29,779 bases of DNA. Origin: a virus. Lineage: Duplodnaviria > Caudoviricetes. Below are positions 5,132 to 27,913 of this stretch, in pieces. Where the stretch lies: positions 1-29,779 of IMG/VR virus record IMGVR_UViG_3300032242_000206; one strand, 5' to 3'. The notes beneath the pieces were generated by a model. The model did no database searches. It was not told the DNA's origin and saw nothing but the letters and a program-made list of their open reading frames with translations. Made by a program: the position numbers and the translations under genes. The first letter of the stretch is position 1. The number at the start of each line of letters is the position of its first letter.

Positions 5132-6433
5132 ATGGCTATTCAATCATTCCAGGCACCAGTTACTACACCAGTTAAAGGCACATCTTTAGCAGAGATGATG
5201 CAGATGGCGCAGTCTGCCCAAGCATTGCAACAGGCTCGTCAATTAAATCCTTTACAACTTCAACAAGCAGAACAGGCATTAGAACAGGCAAAGATTGGAA
5301 CTGAAAAAGCTAGAAGAACACTAGAGCCAGAAGTTTCTAAATCTGAATCTGAAGCTAAAAGACTTAAACTGGTTGCAGAACAAACTGGTGTTGATGTTAC
5401 AAATCATTATGCGAACATTGCTCGTGGAGTTTATGGCGGTCTGCTGACTGATCCAGACTTTCAAAAAGGCGATGCAAAGAAAATGGTAGAAAAGCTAGAT
5501 AAAGCAAAAGTGTTTTTAGAAGATGTTGGTATTCCAATGCACGATTCTAAAATGCACGATTCTTTAATCCAAGCAGCCAAAACTAATCCTAAAGAAGCAT
5601 ATCAGTTGATTAAAAATGGTGTTCAACAAGCTGGTACAAATGCCGAGCAGTTTGGTCAAGTCAATGCTCCTGCTACATATGTCAATACTGGTCAAATGCA
5701 AGTGCCTATTTATCAGTCACCATATCAAGGCGGTGGGCCAGGAAATACTCCTGCAATTCAAAATCAATTGCCTCCATCAACTTTAACAATAAGTCCAACT
5801 GGGCAACCTGGTTATCTTGGCGCACAGGGACCAAAAGGATTTGTGCCTAGTCAATTACCTCCAAATGCAGGAGTTGGTGCAGAAGATTTAAAACAAGTAT
5901 TTTCTGATGCACAAACAGCACAAAACAGAATTGGTTTATTGCAAAACATTAAAGACTTGGCAAATAAATCATTTACTGGTGTTGGCGGTTCAAGAAAAGA
6001 ATTTGTTACTGGCATAGCAAATGCAATTGGCGTACCTGTGTTTGAAATTGAAAAAGCTAACACAGATGTATTGGCTAAAAATTCTGCACTTCTTTCACTT
6101 GCTGGTGGAAATACCGATTTGGCAAGACAACTTGCTGAAGCTGCAAATCCAAATAAGAAAATGAATGTTGAAGCAATTAAAGAAGCATCTAATCAATTAA
6201 TTGCACAAGAAAGATTAAAACAGAAAAAAGCTGAATTTTTACAACCTTTTGCAAATGACCCATTAACATTACAACAAAAATCATTAGAATTTGCAAAAAT
6301 AGCTGATCCTAGATTGTTACAAGAAATGACTCCAGAACAAGTTAAATCTTTAAAACAATCTATGAGTCCTGATGAACGTAAAGAGTTTGCACAAAAACTA
6401 GCAGAAGCTAGAAGATTAGGATTGGTCAAATAA
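5132..6433 (+). CDS. DNA ejection protein, gp20-like
   Basis: ATG at 5132 preceded by AAGGA; helical, Gln-rich; lies between the gp7-like and gp16-like genes. Confidence 0.6.
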   Translation: MAIQSFQAPVTTPVKGTSLAEMMQMAQSAQALQQARQLNPLQLQQAEQALEQAKIGTEKARRTLEPEVSKSESEAKRLKLVAEQTGVDVTNHYANIARGVYGGLLTDPDFQKGDAKKMVEKLDKAKVFLEDVGIPMHDSKMHDSLIQAAKTNPKEAYQLIKNGVQQAGTNAEQFGQVNAPATYVNTGQMQVPIYQSPYQGGGPGNTPAIQNQLPPSTLTISPTGQPGYLGAQGPKGFVPSQLPPNAGVGAEDLKQVFSDAQTAQNRIGLLQNIKDLANKSFTGVGGSRKEFVTGIANAIGVPVFEIEKANTDVLAKNSALLSLAGGNTDLARQLAEAANPNKKMNVEAIKEASNQLIAQERLKQKKAEFLQPFANDPLTLQQKSLEFAKIADPRLLQEMTPEQVKSLKQSMSPDERKEFAQKLAEARRLGLVK

Positions 6434-8592
6434 TGCCTACATTAGCAGAACTTTGGGATGCTTCAGATACTGGTCTTAAAGGCGATTTAAATGATCGTCT
6501 TGAACAAGCTAAAGAAGCCTATCGTAAGCAATATAACAAAGAATTGCCTGTTACAAGTGGTTTTCGTACTTATGAACAACAAGCTGCTCTAGCATCAAAA
6601 CCTAATAAGTATCCTGTTGCTAAACCAGGCACAAGCGCCCACGAAACTGGGGATGCAGTAGATATTGACTCAAGTGTTCCAACAGACTTTCTTAAACAGT
6701 TTGGTTTGCATAGACCTATTGCCAATGATGCGGTTCACGTTCAAGTTATGCCTAGCGCCAAAGGCACACAATCATTGGCTAGTCTTTGGGATCAAATTGA
6801 CGTTGGTGAGGAACAACCCAAGAAGCAACAACAAGAAAAATCTTTATTGCAACGTGCTTTTGAGGAAAGACAAAAAGCTCGGGATGTATTAACAGGAGTT
6901 GGAGAAGCTGGTCTTGCTGCAGCTTCAGGCATGGTTATGCCTTTGGTTGCTGGAGCAAAAGGAATTGTGCAAAGTATTCCCGAAGCTATTCAAACAGGTC
7001 AAGCTCCTGCGCCAATAGCAGAAAAGATTGCATCTAAGTTTTTAGCAGAGCATCCAGGCTATCAACCAACAACCCCACAAGGTAAAGCATATATTGAAAA
7101 TATACAAAAGGCTTTTGAGGCTTCTAAATTGCCTCCTGTTATGCCAGAAATTATTGGTCAAGCACCAAATGTAAAGCCTGTAACTACTGAAATCAATGAG
7201 GCTTTTCAAGCTGCCAAACAACTTAAGAAAGAACCAACAACATTACCTCAAGCGCAACAATTGGCTATGCAAAATGCAGGGGCAGCGCAAACAGTTAACA
7301 AGACTGTTCTTGACCAAGCAATTTCAAGCGCAACTCCAGAATTGGCTGCAGAACTTAAAACTGTTAATCCTGCTGATTTACATTCGGATGCGTTGGCTAG
7401 GCATTTGGAAGCAGATTCTTTACCGATTCCTGTACGTCTTACCAAAGGTCAAGCATTGCAAGACCCAAATATTATTTCTAGGGAACGTAATGAGCGTGGC
7501 GTTAAAGAGCAATATGTAGAACACTTTAATCAGCAAAACAAAGATTTAATGGCTAATGCTCAAGCTATTAAAGAGCGCACAGCTCCAAATGTGTTTACTA
7601 CTGATTACGTTGATGATGCAGGAAATGCTATTGGTTTTGTAAATGACATTAAGAAAAACAATGTTGAAGCAACAAAAACTGCTTACAAAGATTTAGAAGC
7701 ATTAGGTGGTGGAAAGTTCCCTATTGATGCACAAACATTTGGTAAAAATGCTTTGTCTGCATTGTCCAAGGGTGAGGAATCTGAGTTTCTGCCTGAAGTT
7801 TTCAAACGCAGAATAGATGAATATGCAAGTGGCAAAAAAGAAATGAACTTTGACAACTTTGAGAATTTGCGTACACAAATTGCCAAAGCATCAAGAGCTA
7901 CAGATGATGGCAACGTGCGCCATGCGTTAAGCGTTGTTAGACAGGAATTAGAAGATATACCTATGCCTAGCGCGACTGCTGAACTTAAAACTGCAGCGGA
8001 CAATGCTAGAAGTTTAGCGAAACACGATTTTGAACTAGAAAAAACTAACGATTTATATAACAAAGTTGTTAATGGCAAAGCGGATACAAAAGACTTTATA
8101 CAAAATTTTGTTGTAAGGTCTAAAAATGCCGATTTTCAGAATTCACTTAATTTATTAAAAGACAATCCACAAGCCATTGAGCATTTGCGTTCTGGCACAT
8201 TGGATTATTTAACTCGTGAAGCCACAGATGCAAGTGGTAATTTTTCTACTGCTAAATTCAATAAAGCTATTAACAAAATGGATGTTGACGGCAAATTGGA
8301 TGCTTTGTTTGGCGGTGATGCACAAATGTTGCGTAATCTGGTCAAAACTGGTCAATATGTAGAGGCTAGACCAAGGGGCGCATTTGTTAACGAATCCAAC
8401 ACATTTGTTGCAGGAGCAAAGGCTCTTGCAGCATCTGGACTAGAAAAAGCGTTAAATGCCACAACTGCCAATGTTGTACCTATTGGAACAATGGGCAGAG
8501 AAGCATTACAAAATCGTGCAATCAAGCAACAAACCAAAGAAGCGCTAAAACCTGGTGCTGGTGTTAAATTATCTGAAATAGGAAAGCCATGA
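6433..8592 (+). CDS. DNA ejection protein, gp16-like, with N-terminal peptidase M15 (peptidoglycan hydrolase) domain
   Basis: VTSGFRTYEQQ...PGTSAHETGDAVDI...DAVHVQ gives the SxHxxGxAxD plus distal His Zn ligands of M15; long helical remainder. Confidence 0.75.
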   Translation: MPTLAELWDASDTGLKGDLNDRLEQAKEAYRKQYNKELPVTSGFRTYEQQAALASKPNKYPVAKPGTSAHETGDAVDIDSSVPTDFLKQFGLHRPIANDAVHVQVMPSAKGTQSLASLWDQIDVGEEQPKKQQQEKSLLQRAFEERQKARDVLTGVGEAGLAAASGMVMPLVAGAKGIVQSIPEAIQTGQAPAPIAEKIASKFLAEHPGYQPTTPQGKAYIENIQKAFEASKLPPVMPEIIGQAPNVKPVTTEINEAFQAAKQLKKEPTTLPQAQQLAMQNAGAAQTVNKTVLDQAISSATPELAAELKTVNPADLHSDALARHLEADSLPIPVRLTKGQALQDPNIISRERNERGVKEQYVEHFNQQNKDLMANAQAIKERTAPNVFTTDYVDDAGNAIGFVNDIKKNNVEATKTAYKDLEALGGGKFPIDAQTFGKNALSALSKGEESEFLPEVFKRRIDEYASGKKEMNFDNFENLRTQIAKASRATDDGNVRHALSVVRQELEDIPMPSATAELKTAADNARSLAKHDFELEKTNDLYNKVVNGKADTKDFIQNFVVRSKNADFQNSLNLLKDNPQAIEHLRSGTLDYLTREATDASGNFSTAKFNKAINKMDVDGKLDALFGGDAQMLRNLVKTGQYVEARPRGAFVNESNTFVAGAKALAASGLEKALNATTANVVPIGTMGREALQNRAIKQQTKEALKPGAGVKLSEIGKP

Positions 8593-10373: not shown

Positions 10374-10534
10374 AGAACTTTAAAATTGAAGGCAAAGAAT
10401 ACAAGTCACCCAAATCACATTATGTGGTTTTAAGGGAGCATGAAAAGAAAACTGAGCACGAGTTGCACAGACTAGAAGACAAGCTCAAAAAGCATGAGAA
10501 TTTGCCTATGGAAAAGGCACATCCGATTAAATAA
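10370..10534 (+). CDS. Hypothetical 54-aa His/Lys/Glu-rich protein (not in ORF track)
   Basis: ATGA overlap with the endolysin stop; MKNFKIEGKEYKSPKSHYVVLREHEKK...HPIK. Confidence 0.55.
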   Translation: MKNFKIEGKEYKSPKSHYVVLREHEKKTEHELHRLEDKLKKHENLPMEKAHPIK

Positions 10535-10883
10535 GACTATTCTTGTAGTCTATATAGGTTTGGGGTAGAGGCACATTATCAGGCCACAAATTAGCTTCAA
10601 TTAGCCAGTAAACTGTTTTAAGGTGCGCTCTATCCCAGAGCCTTTCACGTTCTTTCTTACTATAGATAGAACCTTGGTCTAAATCCATGTGGCAAACATG
10701 GCATAAGGCAGCAATCATATTGTCATCTGCTTTTATAGCTTTACCCTTGCCATGCGCTCCTTGATTGGAATGTGCGCCAACAATCGTGCCATCATCTACT
10801 CCACACATGGCGCAATTCAGATATTGGCAGTTATCTAACAGTTTACGACTGCGGATGTATTCACGTTTGGGATTTGGTTTCAT
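10527..10883 (-). CDS. Zn-binding HNH-like protein (DUF968/DUF1364-like)
   Basis: CAMCG...GAHSN..HGKG..IKADD..IAALCHVCH..LD; located in the Nin-like region. Confidence 0.7.
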   Translation of the reverse strand: MKPNPKREYIRSRKLLDNCQYLNCAMCGVDDGTIVGAHSNQGAHGKGKAIKADDNMIAALCHVCHMDLDQGSIYSKKERERLWDRAHLKTVYWLIEANLWPDNVPLPQTYIDYKNSLI

Positions 10884-11283
10884 TTATTTCGATTTCGTTT
10901 TGGGCGCACCAAGCATATAACCATTCCACAAACTGCGATGCCTGGTCCTTAGTAAATTTACGAGATTGGAGACCGAGTTGCACAATTCTATGACTATCTA
11001 AGCTCGGTACAACTTTACCGCTTCTAAGCCCTGTTTCAGAAGCAAATTGGTCTATTAAAAAACGCTTCCAACTCTCCTCATCCCATTTAGCTCCGAGATG
11101 TGTAGCATACTGGGCAATATCAGCAATTATTGCGTGATACAACCTGTTTTGGTCGTCTGATCTAACCGCATCCACAATTTCCATGTCGAGCTGTTTACCA
11201 GTTTTAAGCGCCTCTAAAACTTTAGGCCAAACTCTGACCATCAACGCTTTGGCTTGTTCTTCATTTTCTAATTTAAATTTCAT
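10861..11283 (-). CDS. ninB: NinB-family recombination protein
   Basis: RSDDQNRLYHAIIADIA...W..ESWK......F...G..SRKFTK.Q.S.FVEWLYAW. Confidence 0.8.
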   Translation of the reverse strand: MKFKLENEEQAKALMVRVWPKVLEALKTGKQLDMEIVDAVRSDDQNRLYHAIIADIAQYATHLGAKWDEESWKRFLIDQFASETGLRSGKVVPSLDSHRIVQLGLQSRKFTKDQASQFVEWLYAWCAQNEIEINETKSQT

Positions 11284-11567
11284 GGTTTTGACAACATTAG
11301 TTTCAGCATACGCATTGCGCTTTCAACTGAATCAACCAAACAAAACGGCCCACCTTTCCAGTTTTCAGCAAAGTCTAGCTGGTTCTCGTTAAACCCTTTT
11401 TTGCCATACGCACTATCAGGGTTCTTCACCTCCATAAGTAGAGTTTCTCCCTCATATCCAACAAGAAGATCGCAAGGTTCTTTAATGTAATACACATAAG
11501 CCCCAGCATCACGAAGAGCCTTGACTATTTCTGCTTGATTCTCGTCAACTCGTGCTGCTCGTCTCAT
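11280..11567 (-). CDS. Small PD-(D/E)XK nuclease (VRR-NUC/resolvase-like)
   Basis: MRRAARVDENQAEIVKALR..GA.V....PCDLLVGY...LLMEVK...NENQ..F...W.G. Confidence 0.75.
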   Translation of the reverse strand: MRRAARVDENQAEIVKALRDAGAYVYYIKEPCDLLVGYEGETLLMEVKNPDSAYGKKGFNENQLDFAENWKGGPFCLVDSVESAMRMLKLMLSKP

Positions 11568-13492: not shown

Positions 13493-13879
13493 TTATACAC
13501 AATTTCTTTGTAAAAAAGGGTTTGTAATTATTAATTTTGGAGTTTTTTCTGTTTTTCTTTCTTTATTTTTTCTAATTTTCACATTTGTCATGTCTAGAGC
13601 TATTCCATGACCTCGCAAACCATTACAACTATGACATACAGGAACAACATCAAGAGGTTTGTTGTAGTCTCTATGATCGTAAAATTTTGCTTTTTTACCA
13701 CAATCAACACAATTATGTTCAGATACAGGTTTTAATTTACCTTTTTTAATAGCTTGGTGTACTGCAGAATGTGCCCTATTCTTTCCTAATTCGTAACCAG
13801 GCCCACAAAGATAACAGGCAGTACTTAACCAACCAGGCTCTAATATTAAATTTTCACAAACATGGCAATATTTAGTCAT
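13493..13879 (-). CDS. Zn-finger/HNH-like protein (homing-endonuclease-like)
   Basis: Four CxxC pairs; AHSAVHQAIKKGKL...CVDCG...DHRDYNKPLDVVPVCHSCN. Confidence 0.65.
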   Translation of the reverse strand: MTKYCHVCENLILEPGWLSTACYLCGPGYELGKNRAHSAVHQAIKKGKLKPVSEHNCVDCGKKAKFYDHRDYNKPLDVVPVCHSCNGLRGHGIALDMTNVKIRKNKERKTEKTPKLIITNPFLQRNCV

Positions 13880-17891: not shown

Positions 17892-17990
17892 TTAAGTTAA
17901 CCTTGTAATTTAATATTTAGAATATCCCATTGATAAAGGGAAGGTCGGGGTGAGAATCCCCGCTAGGTTACTTAATGTGTTACTTTGTGT

Positions 17991-20772: not shown

Positions 20773-22045
20773 AATCCAAGCTGCGATCACCAAGGCAGAG
20801 TTTCCTGTCAAACTACAATGCTTGTTTGAGAAATCCCGATACAAGTGCATCTTTGGCGGTAGAGGATCGGCAAAGAGCTGGTCGGTCGCACGAGCATTGC
20901 TTATCTTGGGGGCAAAGCAAGTACACAGAATACTTTGCGCTCGTGAATTTCAAAACTCCATATCTCAGTCGGTTCATAAGTTATTGAGCGACCAGATCGT
21001 AGATTTGGGTTTAATTGGGTTTTATGAGATAACTGAGCGCACAATTCGAGGAAAAAACGGCACAGAGTTTAATTTTGTTGGCCTGAAAAACAATCCACAC
21101 AATATAAAATCGTTTGAGGGTTGCACAATTGTCTGGGTAGAAGAAGCTCAGGCGGTATCAGCTAGAAGTTGGGATATTCTAATTCCTACTATCAGAGCCA
21201 AGGATTCAGAAATTTGGATAACTATGAATCCAGAATTAGAGTCTGATGCAACTTACCAGCGCTTTGTGCTACATCCGCCAGATAATTGCATCACCCAAAA
21301 AGTCAATTGGTCAGATAATCCTTGGTTTCCAGAGGTATTGGATTATGAGCGTAGAACTCTGCAATCTAGAGATATAGAAGCATACAACACAGTCTGGGAA
21401 GGATTGTGTAGGCAGACTGTGGACGGAGCTGTGTTTGCTAAAGAAATGCAAATGGCAGAGCTGGAGGAAAGAATCACCAAGGTGCGTTACGATCCTACTA
21501 AGCCAGTCATTGCAGTATTTGACCTTGGCTGGGCAGATTCCACATCCATTTGGTTTGTCCAGTTCATTGCACAAGAAATAAGGCTCATACGTTACATTGA
21601 AGACAATCAGCAGACAATAAGTCATTATTTAGCGCTTATGCAGACTTACGGCTATGTTTATGATACATTATGGTTGCCACATGATGCACAAAACAAAACA
21701 ATTGGATCAAACGGACGATCAATTGAGGAAATCGTCAAATCTGCAGGGTTCAAAACCAAAATCATCCCTAGAACTCCTATCGCAGACTCTATTAATGCAG
21801 CGAGAACTATATTCAGAAACTGCTACTTTGACCGAGATAATTGCTATGATGGACTCCAATGTCTTAGGCATTACAAGTACGAAGTAGATCCAGATACAAA
21901 GCAATTTAGCAGAAACCCTTTGCATGACCAGTATTCGCATGGTGCTGATGCGTTCAGGTACATTGGTCTTGGAGTACAGGAAACTAGACCAAAACGTGCA
22001 AAACAAGTAAACTATGCACCACCACAGTCGTGGATGGCGTTATAA
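20759..22045 (+). CDS. terL: Terminase large subunit (PBSX/Terminase_3-like)
   Basis: Walker A GGRGSAKS, CAREFQNSI, Walker B VWVEEA, nuclease FDLG..D, SHGADAFRY. Confidence 0.95.
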   Translation: MEQSEIQAAITKAEFPVKLQCLFEKSRYKCIFGGRGSAKSWSVARALLILGAKQVHRILCAREFQNSISQSVHKLLSDQIVDLGLIGFYEITERTIRGKNGTEFNFVGLKNNPHNIKSFEGCTIVWVEEAQAVSARSWDILIPTIRAKDSEIWITMNPELESDATYQRFVLHPPDNCITQKVNWSDNPWFPEVLDYERRTLQSRDIEAYNTVWEGLCRQTVDGAVFAKEMQMAELEERITKVRYDPTKPVIAVFDLGWADSTSIWFVQFIAQEIRLIRYIEDNQQTISHYLALMQTYGYVYDTLWLPHDAQNKTIGSNGRSIEEIVKSAGFKTKIIPRTPIADSINAARTIFRNCYFDRDNCYDGLQCLRHYKYEVDPDTKQFSRNPLHDQYSHGADAFRYIGLGVQETRPKRAKQVNYAPPQSWMAL

Positions 22046-22061
22046 CTTATTTGGAGTAAAT

Positions 22062-22967
22062 GTGCCTACACTAGCCGATGTATTTAGCGCTGCCGATAGT
22101 TTTAAGCGCAGATTGACAGATACTGCCATGAACCCAATTGCTAGTTTTCAGCAAATGGTAGGCAATGCCAATGATAGAGCTAGAGAATATAGCGAACAAT
22201 CAGCAAGTGAAGCTAGAGAGCCATTAAGTAGCCCAAAAGTTTTAAAGGCTGCAGAACAAATGGCTGGTGCTTATAACCCAATTGGAATGACTGTTTTTCA
22301 TGGTTCTCCATACAAATTTATGAAATTTGACCCATCCAAAATTGGAACTGGAGAAGGAGCGCAAGCATTTGGACATGGACTTTATGTTGCTGAAAATCCA
22401 AAAGTAGCTGAAGGTTACGCAAAAAACGTTAAAGATTTGTCATCAATTCAAGAATATAACGCTAAATTAAAAAGACTATCCAAAATAATGGATGAAGATA
22501 ATGCAGGAAGTTATAGAAAATTCAAGTCTCAAAAAGGTGAGCAAGCAGCTAAAGAATATGATGAATTAATGGAAGAGAAACTTCAAAAAGTTAAAGATCC
22601 TGGAAATATTTATAAAATAGATTTGCCTGATGAGCATATAAATAAAATGCTTGATTGGGACAAGCCTTTTAGTCAACAACCTAAAAATGTACAAGAAGCA
22701 TTAGCTAAACATAATCCTGATATGTATCACCCTAAAAGTGAAGATTTTGATCCTACAGAACGTGGTCAATGGACATATATGCGATTAGCTAATGAAATGA
22801 CTCAAAAAAATGCAAGCAACAAATTAGCTGAATTAGGCGTACCAGGCATTAAATATCTTGATGAAGGTAGTAGGACTTTAGGTGAAGGCACTAGAAACTT
22901 TGTAATATTTCCTGGCAACGAGCATTTGTTAGACATTCAAGACATTAATGGACAACCCATTAAATAA
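22062..22967 (+). CDS. Polyvalent-protein-type ADP-ribosyltransferase-like domain protein
   Basis: GTG start with GGAG RBS; VFHGSPYKF.KFD.SKIGTGEGAQAFGHGLY.AEN..VA..Y...G.PGIKYLD..SR...NFVIF. Confidence 0.6.
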   Translation: MPTLADVFSAADSFKRRLTDTAMNPIASFQQMVGNANDRAREYSEQSASEAREPLSSPKVLKAAEQMAGAYNPIGMTVFHGSPYKFMKFDPSKIGTGEGAQAFGHGLYVAENPKVAEGYAKNVKDLSSIQEYNAKLKRLSKIMDEDNAGSYRKFKSQKGEQAAKEYDELMEEKLQKVKDPGNIYKIDLPDEHINKMLDWDKPFSQQPKNVQEALAKHNPDMYHPKSEDFDPTERGQWTYMRLANEMTQKNASNKLAELGVPGIKYLDEGSRTLGEGTRNFVIFPGNEHLLDIQDINGQPIK

Positions 22968-26414: not shown

Positions 26415-27913
26415 GTGTCTAATAATCTTTTGACGATTTCAAAAATTACCAATGAAGCCTTAATGGTTTTAGAAAACGAATTGACGTTTTCTTCAGAGGT
26501 AAATCGCAACTACGACGATCAATTCGCTGTAGTCGGAGGCAAAATTGGTAACACAGTAAACGTAAGACGTCCTGGACGTTTTATTGGTGCTGTAGGCCCA
26601 GCACTATCAGTTGAAGACTTTAACGAGACTTCATTGCCAGTAACATTATCAACACAATTTCAAGTGGCAACTCAGTTTACCACTCAGGATTTGGCATTAA
26701 GTTTGGACATGTTCTCAGACAGAGTGTTGAAGCCTGCAGTAGCAACTATTGCTAACAAAATTGATCGTGACGGACTTGCAATGGCTGCTCTTCAAACAGC
26801 AAACATTGTTGGAACTGCTGGTACACCTCCAACAGGACTAATCACCTACTTAACAGCTGGTGCTTATCTTGATGCTGAAGGCGCACCTAGAGATGGTCGT
26901 CGTGCTTGTATCGTTGAGCCTTTCACATCTGCAACAATCGTTGACAGCTTAAAAGGTTTGTTTATGCCACAAGAAGCCATTGCAGAGCAATACAGGAAAG
27001 GTTTGATGGGTCGTGATTCAGCTGGTACAAATTGGAAACTCGATCAAAACGTGGTAAGCCAAACATTTGGCTCTTACTCTGGCAATACATTGTCTGCTGA
27101 CACAACTGCACAAGTTGGTTATCTTTCAAGTGGTTGGTCACAGTATTCTACAATCCAGATCAAAGCATCTTCAGCTTCTACATTGAACGCTGGTGACGTT
27201 ATCCAGATCGCTGGTTTGTATGCTACTAACCCACAAAACCGCCAGGCTTATGGTTCAGGTAAATTGCGTAATTTTGTTGTTCAGGCTACTACAACTGTAG
27301 GAACTGGCGCAACAAACATTACTGTTTCTCCTGCGATCATTACTGGTGGACAATTCCAGAACACAGCAATCATTGGTACAACATCTACAACAGCAGTTGT
27401 TACACCATTCAACAACACAGGTACATTGTCGCCACAAAACATGCTTTTCCATCGTGATGCCTTTACTCTTGCCGTAAATGACTGCGGCTACTTACAAGCA
27501 GCGTAAGTAGAAAACCGTCCCTGATTGACTTGGAGTGCCTGAAGAGGTTAACAAGGGCCAAGCAGACCGAAAGGTCGTGCAGGCTGAACGACTAAGTGGG
27601 ATGGCAGCGAAAGCTGATGCGATAGTCTGAACTCTGCTATAACTGAACTGAAGGCAGAGAGGAGAATCCGAAGAGTTTCTCCCGCCACCAAAAGTGGTCA
27701 GTAGGCGAAAGCCGAAAGTAACAGAAATGAGCCGATTTAGAGCTTCCAGAAGGAGTGCATTTTGCCGGTAGAGCTAGTGATAAAGAAGTTGGTTTGTCGA
27801 TTCGTGTTGTAAGGCAGTACACGATTAACAACGATAGTATTCCAACACGTTTGGATGTGCTGTATGGATGGGCGCCTCTGTATCAAGAACTTGCCTGCAG
27901 AATCGCATCTTAA
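26415..27913 (+). CDS. Major capsid protein, P22 gp5-like; join(26415..27475,27730..27913), 414 aa after splicing
   Basis: Exon 1 MSNNLLTISKITNEALMVLENEL...HRDAFTLA-GT; exon 2 A-GCC reads (V)ADLELPEGVHFAGRASDKEVGLSIRVVRQYTINNDSIPTRLDVLYGWAPLYQELACRIAS*, the expected coat C-terminus. Confidence 0.92.
27476..27729 (+). ncRNA. Group I self-splicing intron, 254 nt, no homing endonuclease ORF
   Basis: P1 GCCGU/GCGGC with U-G at the 5' splice site; P3 CCGUCCC/GGGAUGG; P7 GACUA/UAGUC; P8 CAGC-GAAA-GCUG; terminal G; precise removal restores the reading frame. Confidence 0.93.

Follow-up and report, generated by a model that had tools for sequence, protein, structure and literature searches.

A 254-nt insertion in codon 354 of a P22-type phage coat gene carries a complete, covarying group I intron fold and likely removes itself from the late mRNA, restoring a 414-aa capsid protein (we place the probability of this reading at about 0.92). 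The insertion lies in the window, the whole 29,779-nt stretch of DNA analysed here, a linear virus record (86% complete) whose terminase, portal, scaffold and coat genes make up a P22-like head module. It is very probably a real, functional group I intron that has no open reading frame (ORF) of its own. This kind of intron and its location in a capsid gene are already known; what appears to be new is a gene-less lineage that is invisible to Rfam and its density in one coat gene.

The interrupted coat gene and its junction

The coat ORF (26415–27506) stops after 363 aa at a TAA codon (27504–27506), and the C-terminal 60 aa of the coat are encoded at 27731–27910 in a different frame, with a TGA immediately 5′. 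Both halves match the 423-position PF11651 profile, at profile positions 1–360 and 381–421, and both match phrog_283, the second at profile positions 324–382; this bears out the preliminary description, which held that the gene is interrupted and that its C-terminus continues in another frame. The second exon has no start codon upstream of it, its first GTG lies eight codons in, and it is 88–100% identical to homologues in most loci.

Our first scans returned 97 loci, and the 58 with an intact full-length coat gene served as the reference for the junction. Alignment to these intron-less homologues placed the insertion at nucleotide 1061 of the coding sequence, in codon 354, where the intact homologues encode valine in 56 of 58 cases (with one methionine and one cysteine). 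Among the ten frame-compatible junctions, U27475|A27730 was the only best-scoring one, and removing the insert at U27475/G27729 gives the 414-aa product, so the boundaries and the valine junction proposed beforehand were recovered exactly. On the plus strand, exon 1 (26415–27475) thus comprises codons 1–353 and two nucleotides of codon 354 and ends in U; the ORF-less intron (27476–27729), delimited by alignment, junction scoring, covariation and the lineage model, ends in the omega-G at 27729; and exon 2 (27730–27913) supplies the last nucleotide of codon 354, 60 codons and the stop. Unspliced RNA would yield a 363-aa coat without the 60 conserved residues at the C-terminus. When the PDB was searched by sequence, an intact coat homologue used as query gave no match.

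Fold, covariation and predicted splicing

Of the helices named in the preliminary description, all pair as written, including P1 with its U-G pair, P3, P5 to P8 and four hairpins in the P9 region; only P2 needed correction, from 8 bp to 7 bp when P1 is formed, because the 8-bp version shares C27488 with P1. In P1 (27471–27488, plus strand, as are all elements below), the last five exon bases (27471–27475) pair with a guide at 27484–27488, and U27475–G27484 lies at the 5′ splice site. Guide bases 27479–27483 form an imperfect P10 with the 3′ exon (four of five pairs), and a U-G to C-G variant at 27479 in four loci (L024, L085, L086 and L090) preserves that P10 pair. The P2 hairpin (27489–27509; strands 27489–27495 and 27503–27509) holds the in-frame TAA in its 3′ strand and shows a compensatory change in L085 and L090. 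P3 (27515–27604; strands 27515–27521 and 27598–27604), which is supported by covariation, encloses P4 (27529–27532/27552–27555), P5 (27537–27548), P6 (27557–27559/27582–27584) and P6a/b. P5 is a single short hairpin that lacks the P5abc extension. P4, a helix that the preliminary description leaves out, is limited to four canonical pairs, beyond which an A and a G are juxtaposed, and J3/4 exceeds its usual length. A27534 (J4/5) and A27551 (J5/4) do not vary across the alignment, where the selection patterns or filters fixed A27534 and part of J5/4.

The P7 pseudoknot (27588–27628) pairs 27588 and 27590–27594 with 27623–27628; it contains the guanosine-site pair G27590–C27627 and is extended by A27588–U27628 around the bulged C27589. 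P8 occupies 27605–27616. Only 3 nt separate the 5′ strand of P7 from the 3′ strand of P3, and P7.1 and P7.2 are absent. The P9 domain (27629–27729) consists of P9 (27632–27659), P9.1 (27661–27682), P9.2 (27685–27697), a further hairpin (27704–27713) and a conserved GUAACA box (27718–27723) followed by the omega-G. As had been claimed, no ORF, P5abc or P7.1/P7.2 is present in the 254 nt. Folded freely, the intron has a z-score of −2.92, and 2 of 200 shuffled sequences were equally stable.

The preliminary description had proposed an Infernal search with group I models as a check and would have counted the lack of any hit against an intron; for Rfam, this is the outcome, as the scan of the window gave no intron match at the gathering score or at E ≤ 10. 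In 20 further loci, Rfam gave a single sub-threshold hit to a member of the family, at 19.2 bits. The general model, RF00028 (cut-off 50 bits), scores the spliced LittleE and BAKA introns at just 30.7 and 28.6 bits. It also misses archaeal IB4/IA3 introns (PMC6125680), and whole intron subtypes are known to escape it (PMC6125680, PMC11878797).

The group I assignment is upheld by covariation in the core and at the P7 bulge, by guides re-matched to their exons and by exact in-frame ends, with splicing itself predicted from DNA. Across 82 non-redundant sequences, 97.0% of core cells are paired, versus 78.8% in shuffled and 38–47% in slid controls. In the same set, both sides have changed at 28 of 43 core pairs, a count reached by none of 500 shuffles; P3 has changed on both sides at six of its seven pairs, P5 and P6 covary, and P4, only 4 bp long, is 100% paired and nearly invariant. 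Since our first search pattern had fixed P7, we rescanned with selection on P4–P6 alone and located both P7 strands in 98 of the 135 copies so selected. Because the search expression dictated the three central pairs of P7, only the two end pairs were free to vary, and these covary without exception in all 98 resolved copies (first pair: A-U in 85, G-C in 11, U-A in 2; last pair: A-U in 78, G-C in 17, U-A in 3). The bulged base is C where the closing pair is A-U or U-A (87 copies) and A where it is G-C (11 copies), a covariation of bulge and closing pair that is known at group I guanosine sites (PMC8395846). Several of the 37 copies in which P7 was not located have variant P7 helices with compensated changes. 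In one sub-lineage (L282, L302, L304 and similar copies), at least some of whose members lie in N4-type capsid and portal genes, P7 differs: an additional U is bulged out after the guanosine-site G, and the central pairs show compensated changes. The insert in the window has a U at −1 paired with G in P1, a 3′-terminal G and exact restoration of the reading frame.

These features suggest how the intron would act, with the catalysis taken from the two-step chemistry of group I introns (PMC3984707). Ribosomes would halt at the TAA in P2 and thereby free the core; the early in-frame stops agree with the view that folding benefits from ribosome release (PMC3984707). A guanosine bound in P7 at G27590–C27627 would attack after U27475 in P1, P10 would align the 3′ exon, and the 5′ exon would then attack after G27729.

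It is unlikely, in our judgement, that this group I-derived RNA is unable to splice on its own and needs a host or phage protein. Such dependence would suit the 4-bp P4, the atypical J3/4 and the missing maturase ORF, and many group I introns need RNA chaperones in vivo. However, every catalytic element is present, and the same core recurs in very different hosts and genes (P22-type, N4-type and microvirus-type capsids, tape measure, ribonucleotide reductase and tmRNA), which argues against a dedicated protein partner.

Insertion sites, patchiness and mobility

In the coat family, 74 distinct copies of 215–281 nt occupy 16 sites, from codon 23 to codon 396, with up to three copies per gene. 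Junction scoring covered these 74 and left out 43 cores that lie in other host genes or are truncated; the tests across the 16 sites exclude L177, a misplaced duplicate of site 52. Each of the 74 copies has an in-frame U/G junction, which received the top protein score in 47 copies and lay 1–11 points below it in the other 27. The guides are matched to their own exons: across the 16 sites, P1 and P10 together form a mean of 8.75 bp with their own exons versus 5.57 (sd 1.41) with swapped exons, and P10 alone forms 3.3 versus 2.0 pairs. As exon ends are common to several sites, the own exon is strictly best at just 7 of the 16.

An in-frame stop lies no more than 97 nt into the intron in each of the 73 coat-family copies tested, and in all 12 copies at site 354 it lies at intron nucleotide 29. 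Insert length is 209–293 nt in 154 of 155 coat-family inserts, a set that contains redundant loci and was gathered with search patterns favouring compact copies. The longest ATG-initiated ORF across the 74 introns is 59 aa, and their loops hold no endonuclease ORF. BLAST for a second copy of the intron in the window returned a single match, and the next match of the lineage model scored 13 bits. BLAST matches of T5-like phages to intron nucleotides 2–34 were taken to be short chance matches.

We also examined 80 loci selected solely on their coat protein, which with the adjoining genes amount to 355 kb. Seventeen of them carry 25 copies of the lineage; every copy lies within the coat gene, the 2-kb flanks holding none, and the other 63 close relatives have none in the coat locus. 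Site 354 is covered in 78 close relatives, and 70 of these lack the intron there. In at least 17 of the 80, the coat gene is split in a way that escapes both gene callers and the Rfam model, which distorts capsid-based taxonomy and annotation. The expectation that standard callers would report a truncated capsid is borne out by the related GenBank phage MW202674, annotated with two coat fragments and a hypothetical CDS over the intron; the ribonucleotide reductase gene of a cultured Roseobacter phage is another mis-annotated example. The lineage model built in the present analysis recovers such copies cleanly.

The 12 introns at site 354 form one clade (100/95) and are 86–100% identical. Their presence changes five times on the coat-protein tree, with four of these changes forced by strong branches, and an identical coat segment occurs with and without the intron (L024 and L027). 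Relative to the window, intron-bearing alleles are 87–100% identical over the 15 nt upstream and mostly 63–70% identical at 16–45 nt upstream; the mean for intron-less alleles is 71%. The sequence that intron-bearing alleles have in common reaches some 15 nt to the upstream side and as far as about 45 nt to the downstream side, and within these tracts they are far more alike than over the rest of the exon. This is the pattern to be expected if the intron moved by DNA-level transfer with co-conversion. At sites 52, 86, 109 and 386 the introns do not form single clades (bootstrap not settled); strong branches force apart only those at 52, 86 and 386. Such non-monophyly suggests that paralogous introns may swap core modules.

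The patchy distribution fits a mobile, nearly neutral parasite. On this reading, the element comes from a compact lineage without P7.1/P7.2 or P5abc and likely passes from one co-infecting phage to another through DNA recombination, taking short pieces of exon with it; the recombination would probably be triggered in trans, because the intron encodes no endonuclease itself. An adjacent free-standing endonuclease was ruled out as the trigger, as no gene, and thus no endonuclease gene, lies between the coat gene and its neighbours; the gaps measure 21–64 nt with or without introns. A search of the record for HNH_3 found no match. Elsewhere in the record, 13–17 kb from the intron, there are three free-standing nuclease-like ORFs (10527–10883, phrog_131; 11280–11567, phrog_93; 13493–13879, phrog_2340), and the record also contains the recombination genes Sak (14486) and YqaJ (15275).

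The same data bear on the idea that the intron splices and has been domesticated by the phage to tune the amount or timing of capsid production, through slow or conditional splicing or through a useful 363-aa coat. Its position in the most highly expressed late gene, the confinement of all 25 copies to the coat gene and the stop fixed at intron nucleotide 29 in 12 of 12 copies would suit this idea. We nevertheless consider it quite improbable: most relatives covering the site do without the intron, identical coat segments occur in both states, 16 unrelated positions are occupied, no aptamer or other extra domain is seen in the intron, and the LittleE capsid intron is presumed to splice extremely efficiently (PMC3706429). 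The earlier suggestion that splicing gates capsid output found no support, since 63 of 80 close relatives have no such intron at all; the intron is patchy, and other phages carry introns at 15 other sites. That the insert is not spliced at all, whether because it arose in assembly or marks a dead allele, or because ribosomes hop over it or the coat is made as two separate chains, is very hard to credit, even with a case built on DNA alone, given that the same insert occurs in 12 distinct alleles on separate contigs with purifying covariation, that exon 2 has no upstream start and that the ends follow the U/G and P1/P10 rules.

Self-splicing by a mobile, nearly neutral intron thus remains our preferred reading, and how such an element came to occupy new sites invites a bolder proposal. 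A group I subgroup so far without a name, marked by its short P4, its long and invariant J3/4 and the lack of P7.1/P7.2, might have colonised capsid mRNAs across unrelated phage families, including a single-stranded DNA microvirus, and reached 16 sites of one coat gene without an endonuclease of its own, perhaps by reverse splicing into the most abundant late mRNA together with module swapping between paralogous introns. We offer this tentatively and regard it as doubtful. For the new sites, the bold reading invokes reverse splicing into the abundant coat mRNA, and the conservative one endonucleases that were lost or act in trans; a review states that reverse splicing lacks direct experimental support (PMC3984707). 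If the proposal is true, the RNA-based route of group I transposition, long proposed but never demonstrated, would gain a natural, testable phage system. Sixteen sites of ORF-less introns in one gene, with re-matched guides and signs of lateral spread, provide a good setting for studying how gene-less introns move and arrive at new sites. The compact ribozymes, whose guides vary naturally, also offer material for RNA engineering.

Known introns and the wider lineage

The preliminary description had regarded a capsid location as unusual for phage group I introns. Capsid introns have in fact been published or reported for LittleE (Pope et al. 2013, PMC3706429), where RT-PCR and N-terminal sequencing demonstrated splicing, for Tuc2009 (cited in PMC3706429) and for crAss-like phages, whose major capsid protein (MCP) genes carry group I introns (PMC7886860). 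The LittleE capsid intron (819 nt, with an antisense LAGLIDADG-like ORF) and the ORF-less tail intron of BAKA and Optimus (265 nt; both PMC3706429) resemble the intron in the window as virion-gene group I introns with U/G ends, no P7.1/P7.2 and a similar P9 domain in which GUAACA precedes the omega-G, and some members of our lineage also have an antisense LAGLIDADG ORF, as LittleE does. RT-PCR demonstrated splicing for both the capsid and the tail intron. However, LittleE and BAKA have canonical-type P/Q (P4) and J6/7 sequences and do not share the core sequence of the lineage in P4, J3/4 and J6/7. The lineage model scores them at 16–30 bits, versus 73–143 bits for full-length members outside the training set and 177 bits for the window. 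With such low scores and a different core sequence, they are architectural relatives and were ruled out as members.

One member of the lineage is already published: MGRR01000113.1, an intron in the T-loop of tmRNA and a row of the hand-refined tmRNA_intron group I alignment (PMC11915505). It has the same P4, P6, J6/7–P7 and J8/7 motifs, with the P7.1/P7.2 columns gapped, and two GTDB loci of the lineage likewise interrupt tmRNA; it differs in its tmRNA host and shorter P9 domain. By motif search, it is the only lineage row among the rows listed of that alignment, which comprises 98 sequences according to PMC11915505. Nawrocki, Petrov and Williams (2025) do not single the row out as a family in the accessible text of PMC11915505.

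Phage introns of subgroup IA2 (the T4 td type, the tape-measure introns of a B. cereus prophage and IStrons; PMC2504315, PMC4227781) likewise reside in phage protein genes, including tape measure, and have an extended P9 domain, and re-targeting of P1 between neighbouring sites has been described for TMP-IVS1/IVS2 (PMC2504315, PMC4227781). IA2 is, however, defined by P7.1 and P7.2, and we excluded it because both are missing from the intron in the window; IC1/IC2 were set aside as well, the P5abc extension not being present. In one capsid gene (L231, 942–1485), a lineage intron is followed at a distance of about 80 nt by a group I intron that Rfam detects; the latter has an insert at the P7.1/P7.2 position and scores 60.8 bits on RF00028, versus 19.2 bits for the lineage member. 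The missing P7.1/P7.2 and P5abc are presumably compatible with IB4 or another subgroup without P7.1/P7.2.

The MCP introns of the crAss-like Delta and Zeta groups (PMC7886860) can also number several per capsid gene, whereas they were detected through their endonuclease ORFs and in large genomes, and we liken them by host gene only. The psbA intron of Synechococcus phage S-PM2 is, like ours, short and ORF-less, and the free-standing endonuclease gene F-CphI lies next to psbA. This intron is reported to be mobilised in trans ('collaborative homing'). In contrast to the intron in the window, it has a canonical core, with 87.8 bits on RF00028 and 28 bits on the lineage model, a score that rules it out as a member, and no endonuclease gene adjoins the coat gene of the window.

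Beyond the coat family, the P4–P6 motif of the lineage occurs in an estimated 1,000 or so IMG/VR stretches and was found in 60 GTDB stretches. Among 64 flanking IMG/VR exons, which are not independent and were found with a motif derived from capsid copies, 39 encode major head proteins (of three PHROG families), six tape measure, two portal, four ribonucleotide reductase and one HNH, and 12 had no assignment. Cellular or prophage ribonucleotide reductase genes and tmRNA genes carry lineage introns too. One lineage intron (L201, 236–412) lies in a Microviridae-type major capsid gene (phrog_514) of a single-stranded DNA phage. Introns in Microviridae capsid genes reportedly have a precedent, although our literature searches did not recover it.

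In other genes, some members of the lineage hold HNH or GIY-YIG ORFs in P8 or antisense LAGLIDADG ORFs in P6. Single-motif LAGLIDADG-like ORFs also lie antisense in P6 of capsid introns (L095, L154, L165 and L292; also L241, L284 and L303); four of these seven antisense ORFs have Pfam support, two of them above the cut-off. A further 11 introns (L239, L245, L250, L255, L271, L276, L277, L306, L307, L322 and L345) have short sense ORFs of about 40–90 aa in the P6 loop and are mostly in N4-type capsid genes where a host gene was assigned; one ORF is DUF551-like, and some apparently also have an ORF in P8. These sense ORFs would most plainly be read as small passenger genes and not endonucleases.

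Among GenBank phages, only two records match a consensus-like member, and neither is annotated as an intron. In the cultured Roseobacter phage CRP-118 (OR420741; L359, 2501–2696), an unannotated lineage intron splits ribonucleotide reductase into two CDS. In the openly accessible literature that we searched, we found no description of the lineage as a family, nor any of P22-type coat genes that carry introns, though an earlier account may exist.

In three Omnitrophota loci (L373, 662–960; L377, 609–960; and L409, on the minus strand), lineage introns appear to interrupt tRNA-Asn(GTT) in the D-loop and not in the anticodon loop. In L373 the junction is U/G, and exon and guide form a helix of 6 bp; the last base of the L409 intron appears to be A. 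The split tRNA-Asn genes go undetected by ARAGORN; when it was applied to trial junctions at these insertions, all 36 per locus gave a tRNA, so that the junction is not fixed by this means. In the Williams 2020 preprint, only anticodon-loop sites were tested.

Three other features of the window deserve mention. A 719-aa putative virion protein (6433–8592) begins with an M15/VanY-type peptidase domain. A tRNA-like gene (17899–17970; 52 bits in Rfam) lies just beyond the point where a metallophosphoesterase gene on the minus strand has its 3′ end, and is itself encoded on the opposite strand. Between terminase and portal, a 317-aa ORF (22014–22967) matches an ADP-ribosyltransferase domain (ART-PolyVal).
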